DNA from: a virus
Taxonomy: Duplodnaviria > Heunggongvirae > Uroviricota > Caudoviricetes
Strand: one strand, 5' to 3'
IMG/VR virus record: IMGVR_UViG_3300012275_000009
DNA length: 10,582 nucleotides
Positions within the stretch are counted from its first letter, which is position 1. The number at the start of each line of letters is the position of its first letter. This document shows, piece by piece, positions 6,108 through 10,582 of this stretch. The notes below the pieces were generated by a model. It saw nothing but the letters and a program-made list of their open reading frames with translations. It made no database searches and was not told where the DNA came from. A program made the translations under genes and the position numbers.

Positions 6108-6584
6108 ATGCAGGTACTAAATTCCCAGCGTAAAGCTTTCCTCGATATGGTGGCATGGTCAGAAGGAACGGATAACGGGCGACAACCGACACGTAATCAC
6201 GGTTATGATGTTATTGTTGGCGGAGAACTGTTTACTGATTATTCTGATCACCCTCGCAAACTTGTCACGCTAAACCCCAAACTCAAATCAACAGCCGCCG
6301 GACGTTATCAGCTTCTTTCACGCTGGTGGGATGCCTACCGCAAGCAGCTTGCTCTGAAAGACTTCTCCCCCAAAAGCCAGGATGCTGTGGCACTGCAACA
6401 GATTAAAGAGCGTGGCGCTTTACCGATGATTGATCGCGGTGATATTCGTCAGGCAATCGACCGTTGCAGCAATATCTGGGCGTCGTTACCCGGTGCAGGT
6501 TACGGTCAGTATGAACATAAAATCGGTGATTTGATTGCCCGGTTTAAAGAGGCTGGTGGGGTGGTAAATGAAGCTGAGCTATAA
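6108..6584 (+). CDS. R: Endolysin, lambda R-type lytic transglycosylase
   Basis: The 158-aa translation (QRKAFLDMVAWSEGTDNGRQPTRNHGYDVIVGGELFTDYSDHPRKLVTLNPKLKSTAAGRYQLLSRWWDAYRKQLALKDFSPKSQDAVALQQIKERGALPMIDRGDIRQAIDRCSNIWASLPGAGYGQYEHK) is near-identical, from memory, to lambda R, including the catalytic EGT motif. RBS AAGGAG at 6097-6102. Confidence 0.93.
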   Translation: MQVLNSQRKAFLDMVAWSEGTDNGRQPTRNHGYDVIVGGELFTDYSDHPRKLVTLNPKLKSTAAGRYQLLSRWWDAYRKQLALKDFSPKSQDAVALQQIKERGALPMIDRGDIRQAIDRCSNIWASLPGAGYGQYEHKIGDLIARFKEAGGVVNEAEL

Positions 6585-6859
6585 GCTGGTTATCGCTGGT
6601 TTCTTCGTTACTGTCATTGGTTCTTTCATCTGGTCGGCCAACCACTACTACAGCAAATATCAGTACGAAAAGAAACGTGCTGATGAGGCTGTACGAAATG
6701 CTGAATCAGCAACTGCCATTACCAATAACGTCCTGCAATCACTACAAATCGTCAATACAGTTCTGGAGGCTAACCAGCATGCAAAACAGCAGATCGCACT
6801 GGAGTCACAGAGAGCCCAGGAAGATATCAAAGTGGCTGTTGCGGATGATGATTGTGCTT
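6568..6859 (+). CDS. Rz: Rz-like i-spanin, 5-prime portion only (3-prime end lost in N-run 6860-6988)
   Basis: The start overlaps the end of R. It has an N-terminal TM segment (LVIAGFFVTVIGSFIWSA) followed by a coiled-coil-like, charged region (YEKKRADEAVRNAESATAITNNVLQSLQIVNTVLEANQHAKQQIALESQRAQEDIKVAV), the topology and position of lambda Rz. The ORF-track continuation to 7131 depends on an untrustworthy gap length, and the post-gap peptide does not resemble an Rz C-terminus. Confidence 0.7.
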
Positions 6860-6988
6860 NNNNNNNNNNNNNNNNNNNNNNNNNNNNNNNNNNNNNNNNN
6901 NNNNNNNNNNNNNNNNNNNNNNNNNNNNNNNNNNNNNNNNNNNNNNNNNNNNNNNNNNNNNNNNNNNNNNNNNNNNNNNNNNNNNNNN
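6860..6988. other. Unresolved N-run (129 nt) covering the expected Rz 3-prime end and embedded Rz1
   Basis: Seen directly. True length is unknown, as shown by the first N-run. Confidence 0.95.
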
Positions 6989-7208
6989 CCAATCCTCTGA
7001 CTTATGGGGATAGTCTTAGTTTGAATGTAAGTCTGCTATCAGCACTGGGGCTATGTAACCGTGATAAGTCTGATCTTCGTAGGTTAGGAGAGCAAAAGTT
7101 CAATCTGCATTTGAATAATAATATTCATTAGGTGAAATATTATTATTTGACTGTTCTAGTTATTATGCTTTTAGTTACAATACTCTCACTATTAACAGTG
7201 AGGTAAAA

Positions 7209-7763
7209 ATGAACGAAAATTATATTGCATATGAGACACTTGTAGCAAACCGTGCTGCTGCTGAGTGGGCTTGTTGGGCAATGATTGCATCTTGGGTGAG
7301 TGCTGGAGCTACTATTGTTACTTTGTTTTTGGCGTTCAAGGCATTGTTTACGTGGCGGGAACAAGAGAAAACAAAAGTAAAAATAGATTTTAGGAATGCA
7401 TTAAAGAAATTAAAGACAGCTCTATTATTTATGCCTGTCAATATTGACCCCGAGCAACTCAATGATGAACGAGAGCAAGTTATTGCGAAATGGCTATTTA
7501 AAGATGTAGATCTTATTAGTCAGCAAATTGAGTTGGGAGAAGAGAATGTTAAAAGATTTGATGAACTTTTGAGTATTTTCGATTGTTGCCAGTCTTCATG
7601 GTTTGCGACAGAGCACTTATTTGATAATACTGAGTTAGAAAAAGTTTGGCATGAGTTCGAGTCTAACTTTAATAAATATATAAATGGTGGTGAGAGTAAG
7701 GATTTACTTATGAAAATGCTTGATAAGCTCATCTCTTCTAGATTTGTATTTGAGTCAAGATAA
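7209..7763 (+). CDS. Hypothetical single-TM protein in an AT-rich island (moron candidate)
   Basis: 184-aa ORF with RBS GAGG (7200-7203) 5 nt upstream of the ATG. Markedly AT-rich with A/T-ending codons, unlike the flanking genes. It has one hydrophobic segment (AAAEWACWAMIASWVSAGATIVTLFLAFKALF) followed by a charged helical region. Upstream lie TTGACT (7147-7152) and TACAAT (7176-7181), but their 23-nt spacing is too long to form one canonical promoter. I recognise no family. Confidence 0.6.
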   Translation: MNENYIAYETLVANRAAAEWACWAMIASWVSAGATIVTLFLAFKALFTWREQEKTKVKIDFRNALKKLKTALLFMPVNIDPEQLNDEREQVIAKWLFKDVDLISQQIELGEENVKRFDELLSIFDCCQSSWFATEHLFDNTELEKVWHEFESNFNKYINGGESKDLLMKMLDKLISSRFVFESR

Positions 7764-7813
7764 TTGCCTTTGAGCATTTTTCTTTATTATTTTACTTATT
7801 ATAAATTTTTTAT

Positions 7814-8164
7814 ATGCCCCCTAGAATCCCAAAAGCCTGCCGTGTTCGCGGCTGCCGCTCTACAACCACGGACCCGTCAGGCTACTGCGAAAGCCACAAA
7901 AGCGAAGGCTGGAAGCAATACAAACCTGGACAATCCCGTCATCAGCGCGGTTATGGTTCGAAGTGGGATGTTATCCGCGTGCGTGTTCTGAAGCGTGACA
8001 AAGGCCTGTGTCAGTTATGTCTGCGTGCTGGTGTGGTGCGTGAGGCGAAAACTGTTGACCACATCATCCCTAAAGCGCATGGCGGCACTGATGCTGACAG
8101 TAATCTGCAGAGTCTGTGCTGGCCGTGTCATAAGGCGAAGACGGCCCGTGAACGGTTAAAGTGA
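7814..8164 (+). CDS. HNH endonuclease, packaging-associated
   Basis: 116-aa protein with CRVRGC...C..H zinc-finger cysteines and the HNH core (CQLCLRAG...VDHIIPKAHGGTDADSNLQSLCWPCHKAKT), located immediately upstream of terS/terL as in HK97-like cos phages. No clear SD upstream of the ATG. Confidence 0.85.
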   Translation: MPPRIPKACRVRGCRSTTTDPSGYCESHKSEGWKQYKPGQSRHQRGYGSKWDVIRVRVLKRDKGLCQLCLRAGVVREAKTVDHIIPKAHGGTDADSNLQSLCWPCHKAKTARERLK

Positions 8165-8190
8165 TAATAATTCTCAACTGTCTGAGGGGA

Positions 8191-8250
8191 GGGGCGGGTC
8201 AAATCCCTGCAGCCTGACGTCTTCCGGACTGCCCGCCCCATCGTTTTTTT
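8191..8250 (+). other. GC-rich inverted repeat plus T-tract between HNH and terS (terminator and/or cos-region candidate)
   Basis: GGGGCGGG (8191-8198) and its exact reverse complement CCCGCCCC (8232-8239) flank a 33-nt spacer, followed by atcgTTTTTTT (8240-8250). Confidence 0.35.
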
Positions 8251-8289
8251 ATACCCGCGAAAAATGAAATTTAACCAGGAGTGCCGCAT

Positions 8290-8784
8290 ATGGCTGGAAC
8301 GGCGGGGCGTTCCGGGCGTCGCCCCAAGCCAACGGCGCGCAAGGCGCGGGCCGGAAACCCCGGCAAGCGAGCCCTGAATAAAGATGAACCTGTTTTTACG
8401 CCCATCAAAGGTGTTGAGCCACCGGAGTGGTTCGCTGAAGAAGATCTCCCTCTCGCTACGATCATGTGGCAACTGACAACTAAAGAACTCTGCGGTCAGG
8501 GCCTGCTGTGCGTGACTGACCTCGCGGTGCTTGAGCGGTGGTGCGTGGCCTACGAGTTCTGGCGACGTGCCGTGAAAAATATTGCCAGACAGGGCAACAC
8601 CATCACCGGTGCAATGGGCGGCAGGGTCAAAAATCCGGAGCTGACCGCCAAAAAAGAACAGGAGTCCGAGATGAGCAGTACGGGGGCAATGCTCGGACTC
8701 GACCCCAGCAGCCGCCAGCGTCTGATTGGCCTGGCGGGGCAGAAGAAAGCCACTAACCCGTTTCTGAAAATCATCGAATCATGA
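8290..8784 (+). CDS. Terminase small subunit, P27 family
   Basis: RBS AGGAG (8276-8280) then ATG at 8290. The N-terminus [22 protein letters not shown]... and the [22 protein letters not shown] region are typical of P27-family TerS proteins; the position is directly upstream of TerL. The in-frame GTG at 8281 is less likely to be the start. Confidence 0.85.
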
Positions 8785-10514
8785 GCCGGAAATCTTACCC
8801 CAACGTAAATGCTGCCAATCAGTATGCCCGTGATGTCGTGCGCGGAAAGATTGTGGCCTGCCAGTTTGTGATTCAGGCCTGCCAGCGCCATCTTGATGAC
8901 CTGATGGCGGAAAAAAGTAAGTCGTTTCGTTACCGCTTCGACAAGGACCTGGCTGAACGGGCCGCGAAATTTATTCAGCTGTTGCCGCACACTAAGGGTG
9001 AGTGGGCATTTAAGAGGATGCCCATCACGCTGGAGCCGTGGCAGCTCTTTGTGATCTGCTGCGCGTTTGGCTGGGTCAATAAAGGCTCCCGGCTGCGCCG
9101 CTTCCGTGAGGTGTATACCGAAATCCCCCGTAAGAACGGCAAATCGGCAATCTCTGCCGGTGTCGCCCTGTATTGTTTTGCCTGTGATAACGAGTTCGGC
9201 GCGGAAGTGTATTCCGGTGCCACGACGGAGAAACAGGCATGGGAAGTCTTTCGTCCGGCAAGACTGATGTGTAAACGCACACCCATGCTGACGGAAGCGT
9301 TCGGGATTGAGGTTAACGCCTCAAACATGAACCGTCCGGAGGATGGTGCGCGTTTTGAACCGCTGATCGGTAACCCCGGTGATGGTTCATCACCCCACTG
9401 TGCGGTGGTGGATGAATATCACGAGCACGCCACAGATGCGCTTTACACCACGATGCTTACCGGGATGGGGGCGCGACGTCAGCCACTGATGTGGGCTATC
9501 ACTACCGCCGGGTACAACATTGAGGGGCCGTGCTACGACAAACGGCGGGAAGTCATCGAGATGCTCAACGGCTCGGTGCCTAACGATGAACTGTTCGGGA
9601 TCATCTATACCGTTGATGAAGGTGACGACTGGACCGACCCGCAGGTGCTGGAAAAAGCCAATCCAAATATTGGCGTGTCGGTTTATCGCGAATTTTTGTT
9701 AAGTCAGCAGCAGCGTGCGAAAAATAACGCCCGTCTGGCAAACGTCTTTAAAACAAAACACCTCAATATCTGGGTGTCGGCGCGTTCGGCGTATTTCAAC
9801 CTGGTGAGCTGGCAGAGCTGCGAGGATAAATCACTGACCCTTGAGCAGTTCGAGGGGCAGCCGTGCATTCTGGCCTTTGACCTGGCGCGTAAGCTGGATA
9901 TGAACAGCATGGCGCGACTTTATACCCGCGAGATTGACGGTAAAACGCATTACTACAGTGTGGCCCCGCGTTTCTGGGTACCGTATGACACGGTGTACAG
10001 CGTCGAGAAAAATGAAGATCGCCGGACAGCCGAACGCTTTCAGAAATGGGTGGAAATGGGCGTTCTGACCGTTACCGATGGTGCGGAGGTGGATTATCGC
10101 TACATCCTCGAGGAGGCCAAAGCGGCGAACAAAATCAGCCCGGTCAGTGAGTCACCCATCGACCCCTTCGGGGCGACCGGGTTGTCACATGACCTTGCTG
10201 ATGAAGACCTGAACCCCATCACTATCATTCAGAACTACACCAACATGTCCGACCCGATGAAAGAGCTGGAAGCGGCAATTGAATCGGGGCGCTTTCATCA
10301 TGATGGCAATCCCATCATGACCTGGTGTATCGGCAACGTGGTCGGCAAAACCATTCCGGGTAACGATGATGTGGTGAAGCCCGTCAAAGAGCAGGCGGAA
10401 AACAAAATCGATGGTGCAGTTGCGCTGATTATGGCGGTTGGCAGAGCCATGCTGTACGAGAAAGAAGACACGCTGTCTGACCACATTGAGTCCTATGGGA
10501 TCCGCTCGCTTTAA
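8781..10514 (+). CDS. Terminase large subunit
   Basis: 577-aa ORF whose start overlaps the terS stop (ATGA). It has a Walker A-like P-loop ([12 protein letters not shown]), an acidic Walker B-like segment ([10 protein letters not shown]) and a C-terminal nuclease-like region with conserved Asp residues ([13 protein letters not shown]). Size and position fit a TerL ATPase/nuclease. Confidence 0.9.
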
Positions 10515-10526
10515 CTGAGGTAATTA

Positions 10527-10582
10527 TGATCATGCTGATTCTCGCGCCTCTGGTGGGCGTGCTGGGGGCGCTTTTGCTGGCG
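10527..10582 (+). CDS. Start of downstream ORF (partial), hydrophobic N-terminus
   Basis: ATG at 10527 with GAGGT 6 nt upstream; it encodes MIMLILAPLVGVLGALLLA and runs off the window. Too short to classify. Confidence 0.3.

Follow-up and report, generated by a model that had tools for sequence, protein, structure and literature searches.

Exchangeable cargo between the spanin and packaging genes of an SfV-like Escherichia coli prophage: a probable moron encoding a predicted inner-membrane protein

A 10,582-nucleotide stretch of tailed-phage DNA (IMG/VR record IMGVR_UViG_3300012275_000009; hereafter the window, meaning this whole stretch) raises the question of why an AT-rich block holding one uncharacterised gene should stand between the lysis and the packaging genes of a phage. 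The window covers the Q, lysis and packaging region of an SfV-like E. coli prophage, in which the early and lysis genes are lambdoid and are joined to an HK97-type HNH endonuclease gene, a P27-family terS, terL and a portal gene; against E. coli strain 47-1826 (NZ_CP184839.1) it shows 100% identity over 383–6859 and 6989–8300, and 98.1% identity over 6989–10433. The gene in the block, open reading frame (ORF) 184, belongs to a widespread family of phage proteins to which no function has been assigned. We conclude that the block is almost certainly a moron, that is, an exchangeable cargo cassette in the slot that follows the spanin genes, and we suggest tentatively that its product, a predicted membrane protein, takes part in superinfection exclusion or abortive infection.

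The block was first recognised by its composition. A preliminary description, made from the letters of the window, had placed an AT-rich island at 6989–7813, beginning directly after a run of N and ending at the HNH gene. The drop itself is real: the guanine–cytosine (GC) content is 33.9% over 6990–7813, compared with 50.9% over 1–6860 and 55.2% over 7814–10582, and GC at third codon positions (GC3) is 31% in ORF184 as against 55–66% in the HNH, terS and terL genes. The extent has to be narrowed, as only about 7059–7813 is imported. Using as an unmasked stand-in for the window a locus that is 100% identical to it across 6400–8300 (L006), we placed the left homology breakpoint against relatives at 7058–7074 and the right one at 7813/7814 (7790 for the relative 689R6). 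Homology with the relatives SfV and 720R4 picks up again at 7813, and the return to backbone composition at the HNH gene stands as described. The refined segment has 33.1% GC, 3.4 standard deviations below the mean, and ranks second lowest among 1,724 sliding windows of 755 nt, the minimum being an overlapping window that starts at 7061.

The imported segment starts within the 3′ end of the Rz1/LysC gene and reaches exactly to the HNH start codon. It takes in the final ~24 codons of Rz1 (7059–7131), and the protein tail that they encode differs from that of SfV Rz1 while being of similar length. What had been taken for the beginning of the island, the first ~140 nt after the N-run (6990–7131), is the 3′ end of Rz1/LysC and is lysis-cassette coding sequence. 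Nor does the N-run conceal more of the island, as had been suspected: its counterpart in the identical locus L006 is 121 nt of Rz/Rz1 sequence at 58% GC, which encodes ...LCLMSLLTGCGS... and includes the Rz1 lipobox LLTGC. Measured against NZ_CP184839.1, 129 N stand for 121 nt (6860–6988) and 52 N for 6 nt (331–382). The lengths of the N-runs do not match the real sequence, and reading frames drawn across them are therefore artefacts; this applies to the single frame 6568–7131 previously read through the second run, which is really Rz with Rz1 embedded in another frame. Rz comprises 130 amino acids in identical relatives and is annotated by RefSeq in L006 (8587–8979), where Rz1 is a 92-amino-acid precursor with a lipobox; in the window, Pfam LysC (PF23793) matches 6991–7128 with 27.4 bits (cut-off 27). 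The features of the region are the following.

4348–5100: Q
5754–6104: holin (Pfam Phage_holin_3_1, E=5e-28)
6108–6584: endolysin
6568–6859, plus strand: 5′ part of the i-spanin gene Rz (DUF2570), which runs on into the N-run (phrog_214, Rz-like spanin, E=3e-31)
~6845–7131, plus strand: o-spanin gene Rz1/LysC, inside Rz in another frame and broken by the N-run
6860–6988: N-run of arbitrary length, spanning the Rz 3′ end and the Rz1 lipobox region
~7059–7813, plus strand: imported AT-rich segment (probable moron cassette), delimited by homology breakpoints against SfV, 720R4, 689R6 and SKA5
7111–7150, plus strand: AT-rich inverted repeat over the Rz1 stop codon (7129–7131), with arms at 7114–7125 and 7136–7147 (12/12 complementary)
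7161–7181, plus strand: conserved leader TATTATGCTTTTAGTTACAAT, which aligns with ...GATAATGCTTTTnGTTACAAT in relatives
7183–7203, plus strand: hairpin sequestering the Shine–Dalgarno (SD) sequence; CTCTCAC (7183–7189) pairs with GTGAGG (7198–7203), with the SD, GAGG, at 7200–7203
7209–7763, plus strand: ORF184 (RefSeq WP_001005132.1, phrog_6169)
7764–7813, plus strand: spacer between ORF184 and HNH, 16% GC
7814–8164, plus strand: terminase-associated HNH endonuclease gene, at which the backbone restarts (Pfam HNH, E=2.3e-16), followed by terS and then terL

That the segment is horizontally acquired cargo, as had been proposed, is upheld by what related prophages carry at the same place. SfV and 720R4 (vB_EcoM-720R4) have just 26 nt from Rz1 to HNH, and the segment is thus inserted between genes that are adjacent in relatives; 689R6 has a 168-amino-acid protein (phrog_5789) in this slot, and SKA5 a 106-amino-acid GrlR-like protein (phrog_2483; L005 1947–2267; 26.7 bits against a cut-off of 26.8), both unrelated to ORF184. 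We considered these two as distant relatives of ORF184 and rejected the idea on hhalign probabilities of 3.7% and 0.1%. A query made of the two joined flanks found both of them near each other in ~267 complete E. coli genomes, among which there are at least six flank-to-flank distances; the sampled spans are 1231 bp (empty), ~1500, 1607, 1693, 1825 and 1893 bp (the ORF184 island), in addition to a GrlR type, and 27–37 of the ~267 genomes carry the ORF184 island. The comparison of this slot among related prophages that the preliminary description had called for thus finds it variable, from empty to filled, and cargo of the ORF184 family is AT-rich in every background. The ORF184 island is dispensable for SfV and the other relatives that lack it. 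As a separate observation, the same slot in E. coli O121 strain WL1277 (H63) holds a gene that RefSeq names 'GrlR family regulatory protein', a family of negative regulators of type III secretion, and the GrlR-like occupants hint that the slot carries virulence-regulatory cargo too.

The island occurs in 37 of 5,426 complete E. coli genomes (27 of them with a full-length copy at ≥99% identity) and is single-copy and chromosomal in every one of these carriers, the sources of which are varied (poultry, human, water, wildlife) with no obvious link to pathotype. Salmonella phage 118970_sal3 carries it too, at 95.5% identity; the gene there (L001 2941–3494) lacks 1 nt at ORF position 205, which accounts for its split annotation (gp071, gp072), and this copy could be a pseudogene or reflect a sequencing error. 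Many partial Salmonella entries fall in the same 90% cluster as the 118970_sal3 copy.

Insertion between otherwise adjacent genes and a composition distinct from the backbone (33.1% GC as against 51–55%) are both marks of a moron, a concept that reportedly goes back to Juhala and colleagues in 2000. The slot after Rz is the classical position of bor in lambda, where bor lies antisense to the late operon. Like the morons of lambda-type phages, ORF184 is accessory, lies between the lysis and packaging genes and differs in composition from the backbone, and most homologous loci provide it with a terminator and a −10-like element of its own; unlike them, the copy in the window has neither a terminator nor a clear promoter, and unlike bor, ORF184 is on the late-operon strand, is no lipoprotein and belongs to an unrelated protein family. 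As such, the island is an ordinary classical moron with an uncharacterised product, and nothing about it is surprising in principle.

What, then, is the product? The preliminary description had read here a well-formed gene of 184 codons with its own ribosome-binding site, a single N-terminal transmembrane (TM) helix and a charged, helical C-terminal domain, which it could not match to a named family; these features of the gene and its product are confirmed. The protein is WP_001005132.1, a 'hypothetical protein' in RefSeq that carries no name in any source, and it is found in identical form on at least 1,000 contigs of E. coli and Salmonella; its SD is the GAGG at 7200–7203. Within PHROGs its sole significant match is phrog_6169 (E=1.3e-74, 250.7 bits, residues 15–183 on profile positions 2–165 of 165), a family with no annotated function, of which ORF184 is a full-length member and from which no functional information can be drawn; two distant members of our set (P0036 and P0057) match phrog_6169 as well. 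A locus search based on an alignment of close relatives found a match in just one species-representative genome, a word-indexed search found 13 clusters, every one from Enterobacterales, and an exhaustive profile search yielded 122 representatives at 50% clustering, 130–200 amino acids in length. Three residues (A42, W49 and P76) never vary in an alignment of 31 sequences with identities as low as 24%, and Q52, E53, K56, F61, W131, E135, W147 and Y157 are at least 90% conserved there; this yields the motifs TWxxQEKxKVKxxFK...MP, W...EHLF and a C-terminal FVF. The median pairwise ratio of non-synonymous to synonymous substitution rates (dN/dS) over 35 pairs is 0.079, which points to strong purifying selection on ORF184, and together with the conservation this excludes a spurious ORF.

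No characterised protein or defence family shows significant similarity to ORF184 in sequence or fold. A sequence profile search of the PDB gave no match, and in PADLOC-DB v2 the best match was CARF_TM (E=0.021), each weak match being found in only 1 of the 31 aligned family members; we discarded as noise both the CARF_TM lead and a second to the SLATT domain (NF033634; 16.4 bits against a cut-off of 41), which was likewise matched by a single member of the 31. PHROGs disclosed no similarity to the exclusion proteins P22 SieA, lambda SieB, T4 Imm and HK97 gp15, which counts against ORF184 being one of them and not against its working like one. Literature on TerI in Listeria, HepS in Gifsy-1, the epsilon34 morons and hotspot annotation, among other work, contained nothing on the phrog_6169 family or on this slot.

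The architecture of the protein is predicted from hydropathy, charge and structural models. Its hydropathy profile has one hydrophobic segment (~residues 20–49); the tail before it (residues 1–19) holds one K/R and three D/E, and residues 50–70 hold eight K/R. As a basic flank is linked to the cytoplasmic side by the positive-inside rule, this charge bias predicts a bitopic inner-membrane protein with its N terminus outside and its C terminus inside. There is no signal peptide or lipobox in ORF184, the first 19 residues being acidic and hydrophilic, and the acidic C-terminal domain carries a net charge of −11. Two AlphaFold2 models agree on an all-helical fold (mean predicted local distance difference test scores, pLDDT, of 75.8 and 81.9; predicted template modelling scores, pTM, of 0.58 and 0.62), with a single long helix over residues 3–73 that combines tail, TM and juxtamembrane parts, and further helices at 81–96, 101–137, 142–158 and 164–176. 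The predicted layout is thus an N-terminal tail (1–19), a TM helix (~20–49), a basic juxtamembrane helix (50–73) and a domain (81–176) which the models suggest is a cytoplasmic four-helix bundle. At the nucleotide level, a 19-nt inverted repeat within the gene (7312–7330 and 7368–7386, 84% complementary, 37 nt apart) sits where the TM segment gives way to the juxtamembrane part.

The family is tied to one genomic position across many otherwise different phages, and of all the results this one tells us most. We compared relatives of 59–70% identity from Serratia, Citrobacter, Kosakonia and Enterobacter with more distant ones of 25–37% identity on metagenomic phage contigs, together with 51 loci on viral contigs. 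Across these loci the gene follows the spanins, precedes the packaging genes and lies on the strand of the late operon, in some cases with extra small genes in between. The company it keeps is diverse: at least three types of holin (Phage_holin_3_1, 2_1 and 2_3), at least three Rz families (DUF2570, DUF2514 and Phage_lysis) and at least five packaging arrangements (HNH with P27 terS; Terminase_2 with Mu F; Nu1-like DUF1441 with GpA; HNH with Terminase_4; Terminase_2 with Terminase_3), which include both cos and pac types. In all of these backgrounds the family gene has a GC content of 34–42% as against 40–58% in its flanks, and is 2 to 20 points lower at every locus. Two Serratia backbones (L074 and L027) are 97% identical 3′ of the slot and differ in their cargo, which is a member of the ORF184 family (class A) in L074 and a protein of a second class, class B, in L027; homology between them breaks within the 3′ end of Rz1 and returns inside a terminator hairpin past the cargo, and these junctions therefore define a swappable cassette.

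One apparent exception to the position, a Serratia member next to copCD-yebY (P0137), proved to be no exception, as it lies in a decayed prophage with terS fragments. This remnant of ~1.6 kb (L018, L019 and L020; gene at 5001–5516 or 3327–3842) has kept an intact family gene where the lysis genes are gone. Given the many holin, Rz and terminase partners, the terminators and −10-like hexamers described below and this persistence without lysis genes, we regard the cassette as an autonomous unit and not as a core lysis or packaging gene.

The class B proteins (phrog_16957, also with no annotated function) comprise P0013, P0098, P0107, P0126, P0133, P0134 and P0139–P0145 of our set, with the L027 gene at 5001–5534. 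They share with ORF184 the first ~45 residues, that is, tail and TM helix, at up to 65% identity, including a tail motif common to both classes (MDxxxI(S/A)YExxLAxRxSAxWAFW), and they occupy the same post-spanin slot with the same layout of a −10-like hexamer and an SD hairpin. Their C-terminal domain is unlike that of ORF184 and unrelated to it; it carries an LPxKLEHGE motif and, judging from sequence, appears to be rich in beta structure.

Candidate control elements precede ORF184. The leader at 7161–7181 contains two −10-like hexamers, TATTAT (7161–7166) and TACAAT (7176–7181), and a hexamer of this kind (at least 5/6 matches, with A2 and T6) lies 28–60 nt upstream of the start in all 18 distinct family leaders; the other genes of these loci have one in 18 of 191 cases, and composition-matched shuffles in 23%. 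The hexamers of the window have no evident −35 partner. The nearby promoter-like hexamers to which the preliminary description had pointed do not exceed chance as two-hexamer sigma-70 sites, with four in 6990–7900 against 2.9 ± 2.4 in shuffled sequence and none of them well placed on the plus strand; the conserved leader is a possible promoter. On the minus strand, within the 5′ end of the ORF, lies the best promoter-like match of the island (7248–7219; TTGCTA-18-TATAAT, 10/12); RNA started there would cross the start codon and SD hairpin in antisense. The match rests on codons for N-Y-I, residues that only part of the family has kept.

The hairpin at 7183–7203 would mask the ribosome-binding site. 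In the minimum-free-energy (MFE) fold of the 48-nt leader of the window (−9.1 kcal/mol, z ~ −2.2) all four SD bases are paired, as is the SD in 25 of 28 family leaders (15 of 18 distinct ones, collapsed by hand), compared with 17 of 35 control leaders that have a GAGG SD; Fisher's exact test gave p ~0.01 on an earlier hand collapse of 17/20. The arms vary from locus to locus and keep their complementarity (CTCAC/GTGAG, CCTCA/TGAGG, CCCC/GGGG, CCTCG/CGAGG, CCTCAT/ATGAGG). It is thus probable, from these folds, that the hairpin throttles translation of ORF184, and because the enrichment is only moderate we take the throttle as supported and not proven. An Rfam search with the window and four homologous loci gave no match for leader or hairpin.

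Termination differs between the window and most of its relatives. No terminator was found in the window after ORF184 or between Rz1 and ORF184, whereas most homologues have a canonical rho-independent terminator directly after the stop codon or 60–80 nt further on; a terminator of its own, a further mark of a moron, thus accompanies most homologous cassettes and not this copy. In the Citrobacter locus L013, near-identical terminators flank the cassette at 5883–5902 and 6554–6571 (CCGCCTTCGGGCGG and CCGCCTTAGGGCGG, each followed by a T run), and terminator sites number five there against 0.9 ± 1.0 expected. Terminators of this type are also found 3′ of the cargo in Serratia and other loci, where they coincide with the right recombination junction.

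How might such a cassette work? It would have arrived by recombination, its junctions lying at the 3′ end of Rz1 and where HNH begins, and ORF184 would serve the prophage or the lysogen by acting at the inner membrane. Its short acidic tail is predicted to face the periplasm, and the TM helix to run into the strongly basic juxtamembrane helix and on to the acidic cytoplasmic bundle. In one model the bundle would serve in sensing or in binding a partner, and the conserved TM and juxtamembrane module would be the part that acts on the membrane.

Small membrane proteins encoded in prophage morons most often serve exclusion, as do HK97 gp15 and T4 Imm, and this is a first reason to suspect that ORF184 acts against other phages; by analogy, superinfection exclusion or abortive infection is its most likely role, one that we put forward tentatively and would not call probable. 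A second reason is that the slot resembles the defence hotspots of P2 and P4 phages, which are hotspots of diversity (Rousset et al., 2022, PMC9122126). In addition, a shared membrane module with swapped cytoplasmic domains would suit a design of sensor plus membrane actor, tight translational control would fit a dose-sensitive membrane protein, and an intact copy has outlasted the decay of its prophage. Inner-membrane proteins that exclude superinfecting phages are encoded by prophage morons, P22 SieA being one example (PMC10883804). ORF184 resembles HK97 gp15, P22 SieA and T4 Imm in being small, accessory, prophage-borne and, as predicted, membrane-anchored; it differs in having no sequence or profile similarity to them (PHROGs, Pfam, PADLOC), and we know of no large cytoplasmic four-helix bundle in any of the three.

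Several observations weigh against this role, or against the fuller account in which the moron encodes a throttled membrane protein that acts in exclusion or abortion. ORF184 has no detectable homology to any known system, and its strict adjacency to the lysis genes would fit a lysis-related role too. The enrichment of the SD hairpin is moderate (~83% as against 49%), the N-out/C-in topology is a prediction, and the cassette in the window has neither a terminator nor a recognisable two-hexamer promoter, such that ORF184 may be made only on the late transcript. Lastly, the copy in the decayed Serratia prophage compared with one in an intact prophage has a dN/dS of 0.33, a value based on few changes and not decisive. 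On balance we give the fuller account slightly less than an even chance of being right.

The adjacency to lysis genes invites the alternative that ORF184 is a late accessory lysis regulator (holin-like, antiholin-like or spanin-modulating) which is co-transcribed with the lysis genes and tunes the timing of lysis through its TM helix and charged domain. It follows Rz/Rz1 directly and on the same strand at ~50 loci, and with no terminator before or after it the window copy must be on the late transcript. One TM helix with a highly charged cytoplasmic region is a general trait of holins, and an SD-sequestering hairpin recalls the lambda S holin, whose translation is controlled through sdi; ORF184 thus resembles holins and antiholins in its location near the lysis cassette, its TM helix, its charged cytoplasmic region and its structured ribosome-binding site. 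It differs from them in being larger, in its predicted folded bundle and in being an accessory gene beside a complete set of holin, endolysin and spanin genes, and no holin or antiholin family of Pfam or PHROGs matches it, whereas the holin of the window is readily matched. Close relatives such as SfV that have the same holin, endolysin and spanins lack the gene, and it has no fixed partner, because the holins beside it are of at least three unrelated types and the Rz proteins of at least three families. In L013 and other homologous loci the cassette stands between terminators, and the gene is kept where lysis genes have been lost. We therefore consider a lysis regulator unlikely, although it is the strongest of the competitors to an anti-phage role.

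A role in lysogenic conversion or host fitness, such as tolerance of envelope stress or colonisation of the host, in the manner of bor and with no conflict between phages, is more doubtful still. The slot is that of bor, its other cargo includes a GrlR-like regulator, lipoproteins lie downstream of a junction hairpin (described below) in other phages, and the intact copy in a decayed prophage would agree with a benefit to the host. Against this, ORF184 has no signal peptide or lipobox and no match in Pfam or NCBIfam to Bor/Iss or to any virulence family, most of the protein is predicted to be cytoplasmic, and the carriers come from diverse sources with no obvious link to pathotype.

It is very improbable that ORF184 is a helper of packaging or of cos function that works with HNH and terminase, for example by anchoring packaging at the membrane: in most loci it lies immediately 5′ of HNH, terS or Nu1-like genes, and against this stand at least five unrelated terminase arrangements of both cos and pac type, the absence of the gene from SfV and 720R4 despite the same HNH and terminase, and the terminators that part it from the packaging genes in homologues. 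That the gene is non-functional, either a random ORF in AT-rich junk or a relic in decay, as the 1-nt deletion in 118970_sal3 and the many partial Salmonella entries might suggest, is hardly credible in view of the median dN/dS of 0.079, the length and motifs kept across 122 representatives down to ~25% identity, and the confident helical model.

If exclusion or abortive infection is indeed the function of ORF184, the family would be a widespread system consisting of one very small gene, with no fewer than 122 diverged representatives, and the post-spanin slot of lambdoid and SfV-like prophages would be a defence hotspot comparable to those of P2 and P4 (PMC9122126). The identical protein circulates between E. 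coli (including enterotoxigenic E. coli, ETEC, H10407 and avian pathogenic strains) and Salmonella, and a phage-resistance phenotype, if true, would therefore be relevant to phage therapy and phage typing; if lysis tuning is true instead, a very well-studied pathway would gain a new accessory component. One may go further and speculate that ORF184 and class B form a modular, membrane-anchored class of prophage immunity that has not been recognised before, with a shared N-out tail and TM helix, exchangeable cytoplasmic sensors, and throttled mini-cassettes swapped between unrelated Enterobacterales phages at a lysis–packaging hotspot that a conserved, hitherto undescribed hairpin marks in many phages; we think this rather unlikely as a whole. 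The family makes a good subject for inexpensive experiments, given how strictly it is linked to one position, the N-terminal module that it shares with class B and its probably throttled leader.

The hairpin just mentioned is a ~40-nt element, AGGCATTACAGCAGGCATTCAnTGAGTGCCTGyGATAATG, which lies upstream of many family genes and was found in at least 120 viral contigs (L080–L199; also L055 4935–4953, L056 4936–4954, L078 and L079). It is an imperfect palindrome (−25.4 kcal/mol, z=−6.4), present in 98 distinct 50-nt versions among the matches listed, with neither flank conserved. At nearly every listed locus with recognisable flanks it stands 3′ of lysozyme or Rz and 5′ of HNH, terS or Nu1, in one orientation (L154 is an ambiguous locus in this respect), and at least five terminase types are found beside it; at times HNH or cos directly abuts it, and at others diverse cargo follows. 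The element has no Rfam entry, and occurs unannotated in phage phi80 (NC_021190.1, 44298–44337; L200 2601–2640), right after rha, as well as in mEp390, in Klebsiella phages and in Pectobacterium phage ZF40.

The 3′ half of this element is near-invariant, and its outer 5′ arm is variable, the variation being one-sided, which argues for sequence-specific recognition besides structure. We had entertained TGnGATAAT as an extended −10 promoter dedicated to the ORF184 family and dropped the idea, as this motif is the 3′ arm of the palindrome and stands before many unrelated genes; a promoter role of the motif as such is possible. The whole element might act in the processing or stability of late RNA, might serve cargo genes as a promoter or operator, or might mark the point at which recombination exchanges cassettes. 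The window does not contain it in its exact form. There, the AT-rich repeat at 7111–7150 (a ~18-bp stem; the fold of 7100–7160 has −13.1 kcal/mol, z=−2.76) is its counterpart by position alone.

The window has another variable, AT-rich slot between Q and the holin gene (5101–5753, 41% GC). Here it holds an ORF (5389–5631) for an 80-amino-acid protein with a four-cysteine zinc ribbon, which has a GC3 of 23.5% and belongs to phrog_7682 (no function annotated). The same slot is occupied in ETEC H10407 by a gene for a KAP-family NTPase on the opposite strand (L007 1169–2500), and in strain KE58 by one for a 261-amino-acid hypothetical protein (L008 1922–2707).

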